From: Clostridiales bacterium
GTDB taxonomy: Bacteria; Bacillota; Clostridia; Lachnospirales; WRAX01
Assembly: GCA_031265685.1 (NCBI GenBank)
Contig: JAISCI010000045.1
Location: 15,467 to 79,466, forward strand
Length of the DNA stretch: 64,000 bases
Direction: 5' to 3'
Within the stretch, counting starts at the first letter, position 1. Every line of letters begins with the position of its first letter. The translations under genes were made by a program, and so were the position numbers. The notes beneath the pieces were generated by a model that worked only from the letters and a program-made list of their open reading frames with translations, did no database searches and had not been told where the DNA came from. Below, piece after piece: positions 1,299 through 64,000 of the stretch.

Positions 1299-3536
<2,238 letters not shown>

Positions 3537-4724
3537 TTATATTTTGTCCGCGCCCAGAACGTCCATCAGCGGCTCGCGCGTCTTCTTGCGCGTAACCTCG
3601 ACCAGCCCGAGCGCCGTCATGCCGACCACGGTGGACGAGATCCGATCCCTCGCGAAAGCGCGGCTCAGTTCCGCCAGCAATTCGTCGCGGCTCTGCTTTT
3701 CGCGCATATCTATGAAATCGATTATAATTATCCCGCCAAGGTTGCGCAGCCGCGCCTGCCGCGCTATCTCGGCCGCCGCCTCCAGATTCAGCCGCAGCGC
3801 GGAGTATTCGTGATCCTTCCGCCCGGGAAAGCGCCCGCTGTTCACGTCGATAACCCAGCAAGCCTCCGTGCGCTCGATAACAAGGAACCCGCCCGAGGCG
3901 AGCCATACCTTCTTATCCAGCACGCGGCGCGTGTCGCGGCGCAGCCCCATATCGGCGATCAGGTCGCCGCTCGGGACGCAGCGCACGCGCCCTTCCGCGC
4001 CGTCAAAGTAGTCCCGGACGGCGGCTCGGGCGCGTTCGGCCTCGCTCTCGCTGTTGATAACGACCTCGCCGATCTCCGCGCTGAAAAGGTCGCGCAGATT
4101 CCGCGTCAGCGCGTCGTCGTCGCGCTCGATAACGCATGGCGTCCGGCGGTACCGCCAGCGTTTGTCCAGATTGTCCGCCCTTGCCAGCAGCGATTTGATT
4201 TCGGACGTCAGCTCGTCCGCGCCGCGCCCCTCGCAATTGGTGCGGATGATGACGTCGTATCCGACGGGCAGAACGCTCTCGGCGGCCGCCTTAAGCCGCG
4301 ACCGCTCGTCCTCGCGCGTTATCTTCCGCGACAGCGATACGCCCGCGCGATCATAGCCTGTATTAAAAAGTATGCACAGACGCCCCGAAAAAGACAACTG
4401 GGTCGTCAGATACGCGCCTTTATCGGCGGTTTCGTCCTTAACCACCTGAACGGCCAGCGTCGAGCCGGGCTTTATCGTCAGCCTGCCGTCGGGATCGTAC
4501 AGCCGCGATTCTTTGATGTCGTTGAGGAAGAGGAAGCCGTTGCGCGAAAGACCCACGTCCACGAAAGCGAACTGGCTCGGGAGAACGCTGCGGACGACCC
4601 CGGCGAAAATCGCGCCGACGGCGGAACGCGGCTCGCGCTCGTCGATCAGCAGCTCGACCAGTCCGCGGCCGTCCGTCACGGCGGTTCTTATCGTGTCGCC
4701 ACAGTCGATAATGATACGATTCAT
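3537..4724 (-). CDS. rng: Rne/Rng-family ribonuclease (RNase G-like)
   Basis: 395 aa. N-terminal S1-like segment (GAIFAGVVRSVLPSQFAFVDVG) followed by an RNase E/G core (WVIDVNSGRF..IIIIDFIDM). Confidence 0.85.
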   Translation of the reverse strand: MNRIIIDCGDTIRTAVTDGRGLVELLIDEREPRSAVGAIFAGVVRSVLPSQFAFVDVGLSRNGFLFLNDIKESRLYDPDGRLTIKPGSTLAVQVVKDETADKGAYLTTQLSFSGRLCILFNTGYDRAGVSLSRKITREDERSRLKAAAESVLPVGYDVIIRTNCEGRGADELTSEIKSLLARADNLDKRWRYRRTPCVIERDDDALTRNLRDLFSAEIGEVVINSESEAERARAAVRDYFDGAEGRVRCVPSGDLIADMGLRRDTRRVLDKKVWLASGGFLVIERTEACWVIDVNSGRFPGRKDHEYSALRLNLEAAAEIARQARLRNLGGIIIIDFIDMREKQSRDELLAELSRAFARDRISSTVVGMTALGLVEVTRKKTREPLMDVLGADKI

Positions 4725-12726: not shown

Positions 12727-12734
12727 TCCAAAGT

Positions 12735-12803
12735 GATTTTCGCCCGGATCACGCGAAAATTCTTGAGGTAATTTTCGCTTGGACCCGCGAAAATTCTTGA
12801 GGT
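12735..12803 (+). repeat. two tandem ~35-bp hairpin units in the V-ATPase 5' UTR
   Basis: GATTTTCGC-ccggatcac-GCGAAAATTCTTGAGGT followed by AATTTTCGC-ttggacccg-CGAAAATTCTTGAGGT. Same unit type as 63203-63268. Confidence 0.85.
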
Positions 12804-17028: not shown

Positions 17029-17326
17029 AGTTGGCGTTATCGGCTCGCGCGAGACGGTTTCGGGTTTCGGGGCGATCGGGTTCCGGGCGGAGTTCGCCGA
17101 GAGCGCGGACGAGGCTCGGGCGGTCGCCGCCAGGCTCGTCCGCGAATGCGCTATAATATTCGTAACCGAGGACATATACGTCCTCGCGCCGGATATAGCG
17201 GCGGCGTACCGCGAGGCGGCGACCCCGGCGGTCGTCGTTATCCCGGGCGCGGGCGGGGGAAGAGGCATCGGGCTTGAGGAGCTTCGCCGGACCGCGCTGC
17301 GCGCCACCGGGATGGATATACTGTAA
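17021..17326 (+). CDS. ntpF: V/A-type ATPase subunit F
   Basis: 101 aa beginning MYKVGVIGSRETVSGFGAIGF; position before A. Confidence 0.85.
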   Translation: MYKVGVIGSRETVSGFGAIGFRAEFAESADEARAVAARLVRECAIIFVTEDIYVLAPDIAAAYREAATPAVVVIPGAGGGRGIGLEELRRTALRATGMDIL

Positions 17327-17332
17327 ATGTCC

Positions 17333-17416
17333 TTGTAAACGCCATTGTAAACGCTATTGTAAACGCCATTGTAAACGCCCTGAAGCCGGCGTTTACAGAG
17401 CCGGCGTTTCACAGAG
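17333..17416 (+). repeat. intercistronic 12-nt direct repeats x4 followed by two inverted copies (ntpF|ntpA)
   Basis: TTGTAAACGCCA/TTGTAAACGCTA/TTGTAAACGCCA/TTGTAAACGCCC (17333-17380), then CCGGCGTTTACAGAG (17386-17400) and CCGGCGTTTCACAGAG (17401-17416). TGTAAACGCC and GGCGTTTACA form a perfect 10-bp stem. Confidence 0.9.
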
Positions 17417-22952: not shown

Positions 22953-23109
22953 GCGAATTTTGCCTGGCGAATTTCGCGTCGCATTTTCGCGTGACAGAAG
23001 TTTGCGTGAATCGAAGCATTATCGTGTGGTTCAAACGATAATGCGATGCAAACTTCGTTCAAGCGAAAATGCTTCGTCCAAGCGAAATTCCTTCCCGCAG
23101 AATTCCGCG
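22953..23109. repeat. ~157-bp composite multi-unit palindrome of the hairpin family
   Basis: Centred on CATTATCGT-gtggttcaa-ACGATAATG (23017-23043). Successive arm pairs are GAAGTTTGC/GCAAACTTC, GCATTTTCGC/GCGAAAATGC, GAATTTCGC/GCGAAATTC and GCGAATTTTGC/GCAGAATTCCGC. Confidence 0.85.
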
Positions 23110-30131: not shown

Positions 30132-30920
30132 TTACGAAAGCCCGAAGGAGCCGAGAAATAAATGGAAAGAGGACGGCTCCGGCACGAGAATAAAATAGCT
30201 GCGCGAACACGTCGCGCCGTCGCCGAAAACAGTCTCAATAAAAAGCGCCGAGTCGGCCACTTTTCCGAACTCGATCGCGGGTACCGAAAATACCGCCGCC
30301 GCCATATCCATCGTCAGCACAGGCACGCTTGGAAACACCTTGACGCCCGTCAGCTGGCCGAGCGCATTGAGGTATGCCGTTGAGAGGATGTTGCACATCT
30401 CGGTCAGGGCGGAAATATCCATATCGCTGAAGTCCCCTCTGAATTTCGCCCGGTTCAAAGAAATTTCGCCTGGCCGGATTTTGTTTGGCCGAATTCTGCT
30501 TGACTGAATTTTGCTTGACTGGATTTTGCTTGAATCACGCAAAATTCTTTCACTCAAAATTCTGTCACTCAAAATTCTGTCACGCGAAATTTCGGCGCAG
30601 AATTCATCGCCGTCCGGATCGGAAGCGTAGAGGTAGCGTATCAGAGTCCGAGCCTCGCCGGCCCTGATAATATAGAGGATCATCCCGGAGAGGTCGCCCG
30701 TTATCGTTACGAGCATACCGAACACCTGTTCCTCCGGGCCTCCCACCATAGCGGCGGCTTCCGCGAAGCCGAGCAGCCGGATGCGCGGAAGATGGATCAT
30801 AGCCTTGTCCGCGCCCAGCATCTTCGACAGCGCCGTGATCGCGTTGGAGCTTCCGATATTGCCCAGCTCCCGAAGCACGTCGAAATACAGCTCGCCGCCC
30901 GGCATGGTTGCTTTCATCAT
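30132..30920 (-). CDS. cheC: CheY-P phosphatase CheC carrying a 55-codon repeat-derived in-frame insert
   Basis: Both CheC active-site helices are present (DVLRELGN; SALTEMCN). At 262 aa it is longer than the ~210 aa usual for CheC, and the excess maps to 30441-30605. Confidence 0.85.
   Translation of the reverse strand: MMKATMPGGELYFDVLRELGNIGSSNAITALSKMLGADKAMIHLPRIRLLGFAEAAAMVGGPEEQVFGMLVTITGDLSGMILYIIRAGEARTLIRYLYASDPDGDEFCAEISRDRILSDRILSERILRDSSKIQSSKIQSSRIRPNKIRPGEISLNRAKFRGDFSDMDISALTEMCNILSTAYLNALGQLTGVKVFPSVPVLTMDMAAAVFSVPAIEFGKVADSALFIETVFGDGATCSRSYFILVPEPSSFHLFLGSFGLS
30441..30605. repeat. 165-bp multi-unit hairpin-family element inside cheC
   Basis: The left arm has six GAAWTTYGC-like units and the right arm five GCRAAWTTC-like units, centred on GATTTTGC-ttgaatcac-GCAAAATTC (30522-30547). 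Translated in the cheC frame it reads EFCAEISRDRILSDRILSERILRDSSKIQSSKIQSSRIRPNKIRPGEISLNRAKF. Confidence 0.9.
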
Positions 30921-37859: not shown

Positions 37860-38657
37860 CTATTTGAACGTTTTAACCAGGTTCTGTATAACAAGGTTCC
37901 AGCCGTCCACCATAACGAACAGCAAAACCTTAAAAGGCAGCGAGATCATCGCGGGGGGCAGCATCATCATGCCCATGGCCATCAGCGTGGACGCCACGAC
38001 CATATCAATCACGATGAACGGCATATAGATGTAGAAACCGAACCGGAACCCCTTTGTTATCTCCCCGACGACGAACGACGGCAGCAGCACCGAGTCGGGT
38101 ATGTCCTCGGGCCGCTCGAACGTCTCCCCCGCCAACGAGGCGAACATCGCTACGTCCTTAGTCTCCACCTGCCGCAGCATGAACGCCCGGATAGGTTCCA
38201 TGCCGCGCCCGACCGCTTCCTCCTGCGTTATCTCCCCCGCCGTAAAAGGTTTTATCGCCGTCTCGTTGACGGCGGACAGCGTCGGGGACATAACGAAGAA
38301 CGTTATGAACAGCGCCAGTCCGATGAGTATCTGATTCGGGGGCATCTGCTGCGTGCCGAGCGCCGACCGGACGAAGTGCAACGCGATTATAACGCGCGTA
38401 AAGCTCGTAAACAGCAGCAGTATAAACGGCGCGATCGAGATGACCGCCAGCACGAGCAGCACCTGCAGGCTCGAGACGGTCTCAGCCGGCGTTTCGGCTT
38501 CCGATACGTTTATGGATACGTTCGGCAGCGGAGCGGCGAGCGCCTCCGCCCGCGACGCAAGCAGCGCCGCCAGCAGCAGGATGGCAAACACCGCCGCGAA
38601 CGCCGCGCGTCTGCTTAAGGTAATTCCGCGCGAACCAGGCGAAATTCTTATTTTCAT
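37860..38657 (-). CDS. fliP: flagellar export apparatus protein FliP
   Basis: 265 aa. Signal-like N-terminus, then FTSFTRVIIALHFVRSALGTQQMPPNQ typical of FliP. Confidence 0.95.
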   Translation of the reverse strand: MKIRISPGSRGITLSRRAAFAAVFAILLLAALLASRAEALAAPLPNVSINVSEAETPAETVSSLQVLLVLAVISIAPFILLLFTSFTRVIIALHFVRSALGTQQMPPNQILIGLALFITFFVMSPTLSAVNETAIKPFTAGEITQEEAVGRGMEPIRAFMLRQVETKDVAMFASLAGETFERPEDIPDSVLLPSFVVGEITKGFRFGFYIYMPFIVIDMVVASTLMAMGMMMLPPAMISLPFKVLLFVMVDGWNLVIQNLVKTFK

Positions 38658-40498: not shown

Positions 40499-40640
40499 TA
40501 TACTGTTTCAGAATTAAGGCTGGCGTTTGTTTTGCAAGGTTCGCGCCTATGAAGTTCACTTGGATGAATTTTGCGTGATTCAAGCAAAATTCTGTCACGC
40601 CTTGAAAACAAATGTCACTGTTTGACCTTAAACAGTATTA
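40499..40640. repeat. fold-back element at the fliM|fliY junction
   Basis: TATACTGTTTCAG (40499-40511) pairs with AAACAGTATTA (40630-40640, includes the fliM stop). Inner arms are GTTTGTTTTGCAAGG and CCTTGAAAACAAATG. Core is GAATTTTGC-gtgattcaa-GCAAAATTC at 40566-40592. Confidence 0.85.
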
Positions 40641-45204: not shown

Positions 45205-45764
45205 ACCGCTTCCGCCTCCCCCGTCTGTTCCGCCGTGTCCGCCGCCTGTTCCGGCTCGTCAGCCGTCTTTTCCGGCTCGTAAGCCGTCTTTTCCGGCTCG
45301 TAAGCCGTCTTCCCGGAACCGCCGATTATATCGGCCAGTTCCTGGTCGAATATATACACCACGTCGGACAAGCTGATCTCCGACCCGCCGACCACGAGAT
45401 ACGGCGTATTGTTCCTCATCGACACCGCGTCCACGCGCCCGCCGACCGAATAGACAGTCCCCGTAACCGTGTCGGCTACGTCCGCCGCGATATACTTTCC
45501 GATCATCGCGAACGACTGGGAGCTGACCATGGCGGCGTTCATGTTCTGCATCTGCTCCAGCGCCGAGAACTGCGCCATCTGCGCGATAAACGTCTTATCG
45601 TCCGTCGGGTTCAGCGGGTCCTGATACTGAAGCTGCGTCACGAGCAGCCGCAGGAAGTCGTCCTTGCCCAGATCGTTTCCCGTTTTGGCCGCCGTCCGGC
45701 CCGTCTCCGCCAGCCCGGGCGCGTATGTCCCGACGAGCGCCGAATTCGTTAGCGTTTCCGCCAT
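45201..45764 (-). CDS. flgD: flagellar hook assembly (capping) protein FlgD
   Basis: 187 aa with FLRLLVTQLQYQDPLNP and FIAQMAQFSALEQMQNMN motifs. The C-terminal tail carries 7-aa repeats. Confidence 0.9.
   Translation of the reverse strand: MAETLTNSALVGTYAPGLAETGRTAAKTGNDLGKDDFLRLLVTQLQYQDPLNPTDDKTFIAQMAQFSALEQMQNMNAAMVSSQSFAMIGKYIAADVADTVTGTVYSVGGRVDAVSMRNNTPYLVVGGSEISLSDVVYIFDQELADIIGGSGKTAYEPEKTAYEPEKTADEPEQAADTAEQTGEAEAV
45249..45311. repeat. 3 x 21-bp tandem repeat in the flgD 3' end
   Basis: TTCCGGCTCGT(C/A)AGCCGTCTT three times in a row. It encodes KTAYEPE/KTAYEPE/KTADEPE in the flgD frame. Confidence 0.9.
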
Positions 45765-47055: not shown

Positions 47056-47243
47056 TATACTGATTCCATTTTGATCGACGTTTGATGTTGTCTTAGACAA
47101 CATCAAGCCGTCTTCTTGAAGGACGCCGAATATTTTTTCGGTCCGCGCCTGAAGCCGCGCGGTGGAAGTTTGCGTGGACCAAACAAACTTCCGACGCGCA
47201 AGCTCGAAAAAATATTCGGCACAAATCTAAATGGAATCAGTAT
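47056..47243. repeat. fold-back element at the ylxF-like|fliK junction (longest flagellar copy)
   Basis: TATACTGATTCCATTT (47056-47071) pairs with AAATGGAATCAGTAT (47229-47243). Palindrome GATGTTGTC-tta-GACAACATC lies at 47084-47104. Inner arms are CCGAATATTTTTTCGG and CGAAAAAATATTCGG. Core is GGAAGTTTGC-gtggaccaa-ACAAACTTCC at 47164-47192. Confidence 0.85.
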
Positions 47244-48025
47244 CAATCCGGCGACATGAATTTCGCGGCGGCGGCGGCGTTGTCCGGATCCATCTCCGCC
47301 ATAATCCCGCCCCTTGCCGCCGCGTTCATGCCGAGCAGTATCCTCGTAACCAGATCCATCTCCGTCGCCGTCAACCGGTCCAATATTCTCGCGGCGCTTG
47401 CCTCGTCCATCTCGGCGAACGCCGCCACGTAGTCCCGCGCCGCCTTGTCCGCGTCCCGGATCGCGGCGGCCTTGGGGTAGAGCGATTCCGCCGTCTGCGG
47501 GTTGATCCGCTCGTAGAAGTCGGCATACGCGGAAGGACTGCCCATCGCGATCTTCTCGTCGAACTCGGCCGCGCGGGCGTTTATCTCCGGCTCTTTCGCC
47601 AGCGCCTCGCTAAGGCGCCCGCGCAGGTTCGTTATCTCATCGACATATATATCGGTTTTTCCATTCAGTGTCTCAATTTCTTCTTTATATTTTAATATTT
47701 CGGACTCCATCCCGGCGATCCGCGCCGCGGCTTCCCCCGGGGAGAGCGCCTGTTCCCCGGGCGGTTCCGGAGACAGCATATTGCCGATTATCGGTATTTT
47801 CCGGACAATGCCCGGTATCGTCCTCGTGCGGACGCCGCCGGCGTCTAACGCGACGACCAGCGCCGACGCCCCGATCAGCGCCGTGATAACCAGAACCGGA
47901 ATCAGCGCGCCGCGCCGCTTGCGCTTTACCGACCGCCCGGCGGATTTCCCCGGGGACGCCCCCGCGCCGAACCGCGCGTCCGCCCCGCCCGCCGCCGAGC
48001 GCTCCTTAACCGCCGTATCAGCCAT
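47243..48025 (-). CDS. YlxF/MotE-like flagellar operon protein with an MgtE_N-like domain
   Basis: 260 aa. N-terminal TM, coiled coil, and C-terminal FAEMDEASAARILDRL..ILLGMNAAARGGIMAEMDP. Position between fliJ and fliK, as for B. subtilis ylxF. Confidence 0.65.
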   Translation of the reverse strand: MADTAVKERSAAGGADARFGAGASPGKSAGRSVKRKRRGALIPVLVITALIGASALVVALDAGGVRTRTIPGIVRKIPIIGNMLSPEPPGEQALSPGEAAARIAGMESEILKYKEEIETLNGKTDIYVDEITNLRGRLSEALAKEPEINARAAEFDEKIAMGSPSAYADFYERINPQTAESLYPKAAAIRDADKAARDYVAAFAEMDEASAARILDRLTATEMDLVTRILLGMNAAARGGIMAEMDPDNAAAAAKFMSPD

Positions 48026-53323: not shown

Positions 53324-53473
53324 ATACTGTTTCAGAAGTAAGGTTGACATTCGCTTTTAAGGTTCGCGACCATGAAGTCCGCGTGGACGAAGTTCACGTG
53401 AACCACGCAAAATTCCGTCACGCGAAAATTACCTTCTTAAAAACAAGTATCACTGTCTGAGCTGAAACAGTAT
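53324..53473. repeat. fold-back element at the fliE|fliF junction
   Basis: ATACTGTTTCAG (53324-53335) pairs with CTGAAACAGTAT (53462-53473). Inner arms are GACATTCGCTTTTAAGG and CCTTCTTAAAAACAAGTATC. The centre contains degenerate core units (GAAGTTCAC-gtgaaccac-GCAAAATTC). Confidence 0.85.
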
Positions 53474-53798: not shown

Positions 53799-53895
53799 TA
53801 TACCGTTTCAGGATTAAGGCTGACATTTGTTTTTAAGGTTCACGCGAAAATTACCTTCTTAAAAACAAATGCCGCCGTACAACCTGAAACAGTAT
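53799..53895. repeat. fold-back element at the flgC|fliE junction (no core module)
   Basis: TATACCGTTTCAGG (53799-53812) pairs with CCTGAAACAGTAT (53883-53895). Inner arms are GACATTTGTTTTTAAGG and CCTTCTTAAAAACAAATG. The right end overlaps the flgC stop. Confidence 0.85.
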
Positions 53896-63185: not shown

Positions 63186-64000
63186 ATGGATGACATTATG
63201 GAGGCAATTTCGCGTGAACCAAGCGAAATTCTTAAGGCAATTTCGCGTGAACCAGGCGAAATTCTTATCGAAATCACGGACATAGGATCGGAGGGCGAGG
63301 GGATCGGCCGGCTTGACGGACTGGCGGTGTTCGTGCCGGGCGGTTTCCCGGGGGACGCCGTCCGCGCGCGGATAACGTCGCGGCGTTCAGGGTTCGCGCG
63401 GGCGGAGATGACGGGGATAGTCCGCCCGTCCGCCGACAGGGTTCCGCCGATATGCGCTAACGCCCGCTGCGGCGGCTGTCCGCTTTCGGGCTTTTCGTAC
63501 TCGGCGCAGCTCCGCTTCAAGCGTAAACGCGCCGCCGACGCCCTCGTCCGGATCGGAGGGGCGGATGGCTTCGTCTGGGACGAGACCGCGCCGTCGGAAC
63601 CCGATCTGCCCTGCCGCTGGAAGGCTTCTTTCGGGGTATCGCGCGGACGGGTCGGTTTCGCGGCGCGCGGGAGCCGCGATATTGTCGAGCCGGCGGACTG
63701 CCCGGTTATCCAGCCGGCCCACCACGCGGTATTGGAAGCGGTTCGCGCCGATATACCCGGATGGCTTCGCGGGCTTATCGTCCGCGTCAGCTCCGTTTCG
63801 GGCGAGACGTCCGTCACGCTTGTCTCGCGGGAAGCCGACCCGGACGCGTCCGCGGTCGTTTCCGCGCTGTCCGCGGCGGGCGCGTCCCAGATCGCCCTTG
63901 CCGTCAACGCGGACGAATCCTCCCCGGCGAACGCGGCGGAGGGTCTGCCGCGCCGCGTTATATACGGAAGGAACTATATCACCGAGCGGATCGGCGGGGT
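63186..64000 (+). CDS. rlmD: 23S rRNA (uracil-5-)-methyltransferase RlmD/RumA family; 3' end cut by window edge
   Basis: Manual translation from ATG 63186 (SD GGAGGG 5 nt upstream): MDDIMEAISREPSEILKAISREPGEILIEITDIGSEGEGIGRLDGLAVFVPGGFPGDAVRARIT (TRAM domain), then C..CGGC Fe-S cysteines. Absent from the ORF track because it is open at the edge. Confidence 0.8.
   Translation, partial: MDDIMEAISREPSEILKAISREPGEILIEITDIGSEGEGIGRLDGLAVFVPGGFPGDAVRARITSRRSGFARAEMTGIVRPSADRVPPICANARCGGCPLSGFSYSAQLRFKRKRAADALVRIGGADGFVWDETAPSEPDLPCRWKASFGVSRGRVGFAARGSRDIVEPADCPVIQPAHHAVLEAVRADIPGWLRGLIVRVSSVSGETSVTLVSREADPDASAVVSALSAAGASQIALAVNADESSPANAAEGLPRRVIYGRNYITERIGG
63203..63268 (+). repeat. 2 x 33-bp tandem hairpin units inside the rlmD 5' coding end
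   Basis: GGCAATTTCGC-gtgaaccaa-GCGAAATTCTTAA followed by GGCAATTTCGC-gtgaaccag-GCGAAATTCTTAT. Each unit is 11 codons (AISREPSEILK / AISREPGEILI). Confidence 0.9.

Follow-up and report, generated by a model that had tools for sequence, protein, structure and literature searches.

How a chemotaxis gene comes to hold, within its own reading frame, a 165-bp array of short palindromic units is the question raised by cheC in a 64,000-nt stretch of DNA from a Clostridiales bacterium (GenBank assembly GCA_031265685.1, contig JAISCI010000045.1, positions 15,467 to 79,466 of the forward strand). This whole stretch is referred to here as the window, and all coordinates are counted from its first letter. 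The cheC coding sequence lies at 30132..30920 on the minus strand and is an intact open reading frame (ORF) for 262 amino acids, as judged from the ORF list, Pfam, NCBI and the predicted fold of the product. The insert, delimited by repeat finding and a cut by codons, occupies 30441..30605 on the same strand, where it forms codons 106-160 in eleven 15-bp units. A preliminary description, made from the sequence, had reported the insert with the same coordinates, frame and translation (EFCAEISRDRILSDRILSERILRDSSKIQSSKIQSSRIRPNKIRPGEISLNRAKF, 55 codons), and all three were recovered exactly. We attribute the insert, with a probability of about 80%, to a selfish palindromic repeat that entered cheC and is tolerated as a passenger in the variable loop between the two halves of the protein, and not to an adaptation.

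The identity of the gene as cheC is supported by the Pfam assignment of its product (CheC, PF04509, E = 5.6e-12, matched as two stretches), by the fold match to CheC of Thermotoga maritima and by the presence of cheD directly downstream (Pfam CheD, 2e-29). A comparison with the PDB matched the CheC structures 1XKR/2F9Z with E = 1.2e-19. The NCBI record MDR1209403.1, from a metagenome-assembled genome (MAG) labelled 'Clostridiales bacterium', is identical to the product and is named CheC and intact; this CheC of 262 aa is also what the NCBI MAG contig encodes.

The inserted segment was absent from every one of the roughly 190 CheC relatives that were examined. The 40 homologues obtained from a search of 5.8 billion proteins measure 200-214 aa and show a gap exactly at the insert, the sole exception being an identical copy encoded in another assembly of this organism. 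An exhaustive HMMER search covered 1.84 billion representatives, and its 149 best matches each align as two stretches flanking the insert; their length is about 190-237 aa, except for four multi-domain proteins of 416-658 aa and a few truncated entries. For CheC of T. maritima (1XKR, 2F9Z) the alignment covers residues 10-104 and 165-251 and leaves only 4 residues of the T. maritima protein between the two blocks. The excess length of this CheC is therefore the repeat segment, as had been proposed at the outset, and a homologous segment lacking repeat character, which was looked for among the same relatives, was found in none of them. The insertion point corresponds to the alpha2-alpha1' loop that joins the two pseudo-symmetric halves of the protein, a loop that differs in length and sequence between family members, and the homologue consensus at this point is E-F. 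The preliminary description had likewise placed the insert between the halves.

Tandem Repeats Finder resolved two 15-bp arrays in the insert, at 30462-30533 (4.8 copies) and at 30535-30591 (3.8 copies), and an inverted-repeat search returned facing arms of 59 nt that are 76% complementary. Cut in register on the coding strand, the insert consists of five L-type and six R-type units; the six units facing five that were counted earlier are the same set viewed from the plus strand. The 5' arm on the mRNA (30534..30605, minus strand, codons 106-129) is built of L-type units GAAWTTTGM+GTGAnn and reads EFCAE ISRDR ILSDR ILSER ILRD, and the 3' arm (30441..30533, minus strand, codons 130-160) is built of R-type units nnTCAA+GCRAAATYC and reads SSKIQ SSKIQ SSRIR PNKIR PGEIS LNRAKF. 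The tip of the hairpin, at 30517..30551 on the minus strand, was identified by a covariance model as one basic 27-nt hairpin (GAATTTTGC GTGATTCAA GCAAAATCC) of the family described below. As RNA, the 165 nt fold into a single long bulged hairpin of −55.8 kcal/mol (z = −4.9 relative to shuffles). The hairpin proposed in the preliminary description is thus present, whereas its reputed strength and arm length of about 80 bp did not hold: with arms of ~59-75 nt and 76% complementarity it is moderately strong, not very strong.

In composition the insert looks foreign to cheC, with a GC content of 0.42 and a GC content at third codon positions (GC3) of 0.45, compared to a GC3 of 0.74 in the remainder of the gene. 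The encoded peptide is basic (net charge +6) and of low complexity, with repeating pentapeptides such as ILSDR and SSKIQ. Of the three frames of the insert strand only one is open, and the other two hold 3 and 4 stops; the chance of an open frame of 55 codons at the composition of the insert is 0.02-0.025. The insert is bordered by an imperfect direct repeat, the first copy of which is the upstream flank GGCGATGAATTC (GGC GAT GAA TTC, G104 D105 E106 F107; 30600..30611, minus strand) and the second the downstream flank GGGGACTTC (GGG GAC TTC, G162 D163 F164; 30429..30437, minus strand). Since GD(E)F is repeated on both sides, the boundaries of the insert are uncertain by 2-3 codons. An insert-free junction would be expected to read ...GACGGCGAT(GAA)TTCAGCGATATG..., and the flanking repeat could be either a decayed target duplication or microhomology with the GAATTC of the element. 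Inside the insert, a scan for terminators detected nothing on the transcribed strand that resembles a terminator tail, and a role as internal terminator was dropped for this reason.

The basic element of the family is a 27-nt hairpin, in which an A+T-rich stem of 9 bp (GAAKTTYGC) and its complement enclose a conserved loop of 9 nt (KTGRWYCAM). Its unit motif occurs 31 times in the window where 10.2 occurrences are expected (about threefold), a number attained in none of 100 shuffles, and clusters of at least two units were observed 9 times against 0.5 expected. A covariance model, R1, was built from 12 copies with the cheC copy left out. It recognized the cheC hairpin tip (30517-30551) with 36.2 bits and E = 2e-6 and also revealed a previously unnoticed copy at 47161. 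The cheC tip is furthermore identical in 26 of 27 positions to the intergenic copy at 40566-40592. These results support the assignment of the cheC insert to a dispersed intergenic hairpin family, in line with the preliminary description. In the 12 copies 95.5% of the pair positions are paired, with covariation between G-C and U-A at columns 8/28 and between U-A and C-G at columns 11/25. The copies have a GC content of 37-51%, compared to 61% for the window, and the family amounts to about 13 loci in the 64 kb. An Rfam scan of the whole window matched no family.

Two intergenic copies on the plus strand, at 3340..3460 and 22955..23108, are multi-layered and have the same stacked 15-bp half-unit architecture as the multi-layer copy inside cheC (30441-30605). 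The second of these (−69.2 kcal/mol, z = −6.4) consists of four stacked stem layers and a core hairpin. Each layer is a different stem subtype, and its left and right parts are complementary in 8/9, 9/9, 8/8 and 9/9 positions (89-100%), with 10/10 in the core. The core hairpin, GCATTATCGT-GTGGTTCAA-ACGATAATGC, is identical over its 40 nt in the two copies. The matched arms of the layers at 22955-23108 hint at nested insertion into the loop of resident hairpins or at conversion between the arms.

Both phosphatase motifs of the CheC product occupy invariant alignment columns. The first, D14-x3-E18-x2-N21 (30858..30881, minus strand), is followed by Pro45 after 23 residues, and the second, S170-x3-E174-x2-N177 (30390..30413, minus strand), lies 10 codons past the insert and is followed by Pro200 after 22 residues. 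Both had been considered intact before, which is correct apart from the spacer between Asn and Pro of the first motif, which measures 23 and not 22 residues. Five of 60 highly conserved columns deviate in this CheC, with a median of 2 in the homologues and 10 in the nearest relative; there is no excess and the value is within the range of intact homologues. AlphaFold, supplied with a 41-sequence alignment, predicted the CheC core with pLDDT values of ~74-93 (means of 10-residue blocks) and the insert with values of 41-72, the latter as a helix at residues 105-133 (~49-72), a disordered stretch at 134-151 (41-49) and a short helix at 152-161. The best Foldseek matches of the model were to T. 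maritima CheC, 1XKR with E = 1.7e-16 and 2F9Z with E = 9.9e-17, at a target TM score of 0.77-0.80. We infer from sequence and model that the insert would be translated and that CheC would still be working.

The favoured reading would then run as follows. A copy of a dispersed A+T-rich hairpin repeat would have become part of the cheC coding sequence at a permissive site, the variable loop between helix alpha2 and the second active-site helix. One stop-free frame on this strand, combined with units of 5 codons, would have left the gene open and the element translated, and the 55-residue segment would loop out of an otherwise normal CheC fold. Part of the length of the insert may stem from duplication of 15-bp units, in place or in the donor copy. 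Several observations weigh against this reading. The cheC junctions show no clear target-site duplication, only the imperfect repeat (GGCGATGAATTC / GGGGAC-TTC), and Pfam identified no transposase among the ~55 window genes scanned. As a consequence, arrival by insertion is a mechanism that we infer from the pattern. The flanks of the other family copies were inspected as well, and no consistent target-site duplication was seen. The nearest CheC is only 57-58% identical outside the insert, which leaves neither an empty site nor a date for the event. Residue 176, beside the second catalytic Asn, is Cys, where at least 90% of the homologues have Gly. FliY, encoded in the same operon, has a CheC-like phosphatase domain, and a weakened CheC might persist beside it. 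Finally, the Logan assembly that confirms the locus (see below) was probably built from the same reads as the MAG, and is not independent biological or population-level support. In exact look-ups directed at an insert-free allele, variants of the CheC start and the adjacent proteins PilZ and CheD returned the same organism only, and the loci of relatives (L002-L004) contained no family hairpins.

The alternative that survives best overlaps with the favoured reading and differs from it only in the source of the length. Here, a hairpin of 27-35 bp would have entered cheC and its arms would have lengthened in place by slipped-strand duplication of 15-bp units, of which a coding region keeps only changes in multiples of three bases. 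We rate this as a serious possibility, at somewhat less than even odds. Adjacent units of one arm are identical in 11-14 of 15 positions and are thereby more alike than the arms are complementary (76%), and units 3 and 4 have in common a private GCG>GAG change without a counterpart on the facing arm; part of the array would for these reasons have arisen by unit duplication. With a unit of 15 bp, equal to 5 codons, the number of units in the array can rise or fall and the frame is kept. Growth in place is further favoured by the unequal number of units on the two arms, 5 and 6, and by an unrelated hairpin at 17319-17409 with the same amplification of its arms, 4-5 units against 2. However, the intergenic multi-layer copies at 3340-3460 and 22955-23108 make a ready-made multi-unit donor equally possible, and slippage alone does not explain that the layers of the latter are distinct subtypes with near-perfect complementarity between left and right.

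A dead or crippled cheC, in which the insertion would be too recent for a stop codon to have appeared and FliY would cover the dephosphorylation of CheY-P, appears unlikely. In its favour, the 55-residue insert ends ten codons before the second active-site helix, Gly176 next to the catalytic Asn is replaced by Cys, and fliY with its CheC-like domain is present. In the chemotaxis of Bacillus, FliY is the main phosphatase, and CheC, which has weak phosphatase activity, mainly serves to regulate CheD; a moderate impairment of CheC could therefore be tolerated as well. The pairing of the arms nevertheless argues against a very recent event, having diverged to 76% compared to 89-100% in the intergenic layers. 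From this difference the copy in cheC would seem to be of some age, or else not under selection to keep its pairing. The frame is nonetheless open, with a chance of ~0.02, the conserved columns are kept as in intact homologues, the core fold is predicted confidently, and the site is a loop that varies in length and sequence in the family.

Less probable still is that the insert has been exapted, either its peptide as a linker or interaction arm, or its mRNA hairpin as a regulator of processing, stability or translation in the fla/che operon. Six other copies between genes of the same operon make RNA hairpins a recurrent feature of the transcript and keep a role at the RNA level conceivable, the first arm is predicted to be helical, and the stem covariation indicates that pairing is preserved in the family. 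The covariation would equally be expected if hairpins were copied as units, though, and the cheC copy pairs worse than the intergenic copies and is without a terminator-like tail on the transcribed strand. Moreover, nothing similar occurs in any homologue, the composition is not adapted to coding (GC3 0.45) and the structural confidence is low. Where the preliminary description had offered exaptation and tolerance side by side, tolerance is the one that is supported; nothing speaks for exaptation, given the absence of the segment from all homologues, its GC3 and its poor structure prediction.

An assembly artefact of the MAG, by a repeat-induced chimera or fold-back, could be invoked from the nature of the source, from the tendency of repeats to be misassembly sites and from the break of a Logan contig within another copy at ~23029, but is highly improbable, given that two different assemblers produced the identical sequence through the insert and kilobases on both sides, that the reading frame of the one gene runs on across either junction and that fold-back collapse is not expected with imperfect arms. 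Over 11,097 bp the Logan assembly of run SRR14710922 has 100% identity to the window, and it covers the insert together with over 4 kb of either flank, which rules out an assembler artefact. Its contig SRR14710922_48130 ends at ~23029 in the centre of the multi-layer hairpin 22955-23108 and passes through the less perfect cheC hairpin.

Translated family copies were found in three genes of the 64 kb, cheC, rlmD and fliP. The rlmD gene, for a TRAM-domain 23S rRNA methyltransferase, has its start on the plus strand at 63186, preceded by the ribosome-binding site GGAGG, and model R1 located two tandem 33-bp (11-codon) family units at its 5' end (63201..63268, plus strand; MDDIMEAISREPSEILKAISREPGEIL-IEITDIG...). 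The RlmD product has MDDIMEAISREPSEILKAISREPGEIL at its N-terminus, followed by the TRAM domain; residues 6-27 correspond to the two units, translated as EAISREPSEILK AISREPGEILI. No start codon was found in rlmD downstream of the units, and the NCBI RlmD protein has the same start. The TRAM core is preceded by 2-6 residues in the closest RlmD homologues and by up to 17 in others. In fliP, one family unit (38617..38651, minus strand; model R1, E = 4e-8) forms codons 3-14 (MKIRISPGSRGITLSR...). The start ATG of fliP overlaps the stop of fliO, and NCBI MDR1209411.1 has the same start. In all three translated copies the stem is read as (A)ATT-TCG/TTG, a coincidence with a chance of ~1 in 12 that is not significant.

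In-frame palindromic repeats are an event already known from Rickettsia and a few other bacteria. The source studies on the Rickettsia palindromic elements (RPEs) are those of Ogata et al. of 2000 and 2002. According to a summary of this work, RPEs are dispersed palindromes of ~100-150 bp that occur both between genes and in frame in unrelated housekeeping genes, as do the hairpins described here, and they add translated segments at positions judged compatible with the fold in several genes per genome, compared to three in 64 kb here (PMC10969869). The present family comprises a 165-bp member forming a single long hairpin, about 13 loci in 64 kb and in-frame copies in cheC, rlmD and fliP. It is likened to RPEs by its behaviour and does not belong to them; the host is an uncultured Clostridiales MAG and a sequence relationship is not expected. 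By host or sequence it likewise falls outside the ERIC/RU, QMITE and BOX repeats considered next. Whereas RPEs follow a consensus of fixed length, the element here is modular, with stacked 15-bp half-units or tandem 33-bp units around a 9-nt loop and a total size of 27-165 bp.

[quoted passage not shown] ERIC/RU (PMC2759123), the Coxiella elements QMITE1/2 (PMC5896051), and BOX and the Anabaena MITEs (PMC10969869) are short non-autonomous inverted repeats with occasional in-frame fusions or terminal extensions, and intragenic peptides of MITE type are often basic, as is the cheC insert with its net charge of +6. Inverted repeats are present in the family as well: the cheC element is an inverted repeat throughout, and some intergenic copies have the outer arms TGACATTTGTTTTTAAGG / CCTTAAAAACAAATGTCA. 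In contrast to two terminal inverted repeats around a core, however, the whole element here is one hairpin. MITE status of the family is not established, as the window shows neither a clear duplication of the target nor a parent element. With the repetitive extragenic palindromes (REPs), their composite BIMEs and the associated RAYT transposases (PMC2817692), the family has in common imperfect palindromes of 20-40 nt, a high copy number, a location mostly between operon genes, composite structures and preserved pairing. REPs are G+C-rich with a conserved 5' tetranucleotide, whereas the present hairpins are A+T-rich and have no conserved GTAG-like flank; BIMEs alternate whole REPs in opposite orientation, whereas here left halves are nested against right halves. 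Pfam identified neither a RAYT gene nor a Y1 transposase among the window genes scanned, and the family does not have the features of a REP/RAYT system. The pneumococcal BOX element and a minisatellite MITE of Porphyromonas gingivalis (PMC10969869, PMC4596501) are modular with a varying number of short internal units, as seen here, but their variable units form one direct central array, whereas two mirrored arrays pair with each other in the present family. The family is thus distinctive in its architecture of left half-units stacked against right half-units around a conserved loop.

The locus contributes a Firmicutes case, in a lineage that is uncultured and probably from termite guts, to the few bacteria in which selfish palindromic repeats are translated in housekeeping proteins. 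The cheC case is unusually clean, having a solved homologue and an insert placed exactly at the junction of two structural halves, and the 5-codon periodicity explains how the length can change without loss of frame. It makes the seeding of new protein segments by repeats a testable question and draws attention to a modular hairpin family. It also carries a warning for annotation, namely that over-long proteins in such genomes may contain repeat-derived segments.

Outside the window, the hairpin pattern is very rare in public data. A scan of the GTDB species genomes, a collection that does not include the source MAG, returned three stretches only, and no match was obtained in JGI metagenome contigs or IMG/VR. 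In two other MAGs the 27-nt hairpin is densely clustered on short contigs. A contig binned as Treponema, JAISCC010000039.1, holds five copies in 8 kb (405, 1397, 4730, 4799 and 4913); an ORF beside them looks phage portal-like by eye, and the contig may thus be phage-like. An Oscillospiraceae MAG contains the hairpin in contig JAITDK010000037.1 at 2774-2875 and 3949-3983, and its sample, Nm470, is from the gut of the termite Neotermes meruensis (PMC11707648). Undibacterium has a single copy, which is probably fortuitous, as ~1-2 chance matches were estimated by hand for this pattern and database size. Several ORFs on JAISCC010000039.1 end in or run through a hairpin. The source MAG likewise is likely from a termite gut. 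A protein search with concatenated synthetic repeat peptides gave no match at E ≤ 10, not even to CheC, a result presumably due to composition filtering and not evidence of absence.

A more far-reaching idea, which we regard as speculative and improbable, is a mobile element of a new, self-nesting kind. It would enter resident copies at their tip loop, give rise to 'Russian-doll' palindromes and, in the manner of RPEs, generate insertions in the proteins of termite-gut Firmicutes. If this were so, the layers would represent different stem subtypes with a shared loop, and units of 15 and 33 bp (5 and 11 codons) with stop-poor frames would make the element systematically translatable. Movement between phyla on phage-like DNA might follow, the same hairpin being found in the Oscillospiraceae and Treponema MAG contigs.

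The remaining copies in the window are simpler. A single hairpin within outer arms lies at 1218 and two tandem units lie between genes at 12731-12802, in addition to the fliP unit at 38617 and the two rlmD units at 63201-63268. Copies at 40562, 42227, 47161, 48528, 53385 and 53844 are located in spacers of the fla/che operon, and that between fliM and fliY (40562..40596, plus strand) is the nearest relative of the cheC hairpin tip. Some intergenic copies, at 1190-1280, 40515-40625, 53340-53465 and 53820-53880, are enclosed by outer inverted repeats, TGACATTTGTTTTTAAGG + TTCGCGCG ... CCTTAAAAACAAATGTCA, and thereby form palindromes of composite build and 60-125 bp in length, among which that at 53820-53880 has its outer arms almost without the inner hairpin.

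The operon is a complete fla/che operon of the Bacillus/Clostridium type on the minus strand, running from flgB at ~54.8 kb to a sigma factor gene at 28.4 kb according to Pfam and the gene neighbours, and it includes the fliY gene mentioned above. In it, cheC is flanked by a PilZ/YcgR-type gene and cheD, with the gene for the sigma factor, of sigma-28 type, downstream (Pfam). The six spacer copies are found in the short gaps flgC/fliE, fliE/fliF, fliI/fliJ, motB/fliL and fliM/fliY and in that between the ORF at 47243..48025 and fliK, where they might serve as RNA processing or stability elements. This ORF (47243-48025, minus strand), between fliJ and fliK, encodes 260 aa with coding-like composition and is without a Pfam match. 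A different type of repeat, unrelated to the hairpin family, is present at the 3' end of flgD (45241-45311, minus strand), where a 21-bp in-frame tandem repeat encodes three copies of KTAYEPE.

The hairpin at 17319-17409, likewise unrelated to the family, lies between the genes for the F and A subunits of a V-type ATPase. Its arms consist of four to five copies of TGTAAACGCC with a 12-bp period facing two copies of GGCGTTTACA with a 15-bp period, a tandem-arm architecture like that of the cheC copy, and a tendency to multiply the arms of hairpins may be general in this genome.

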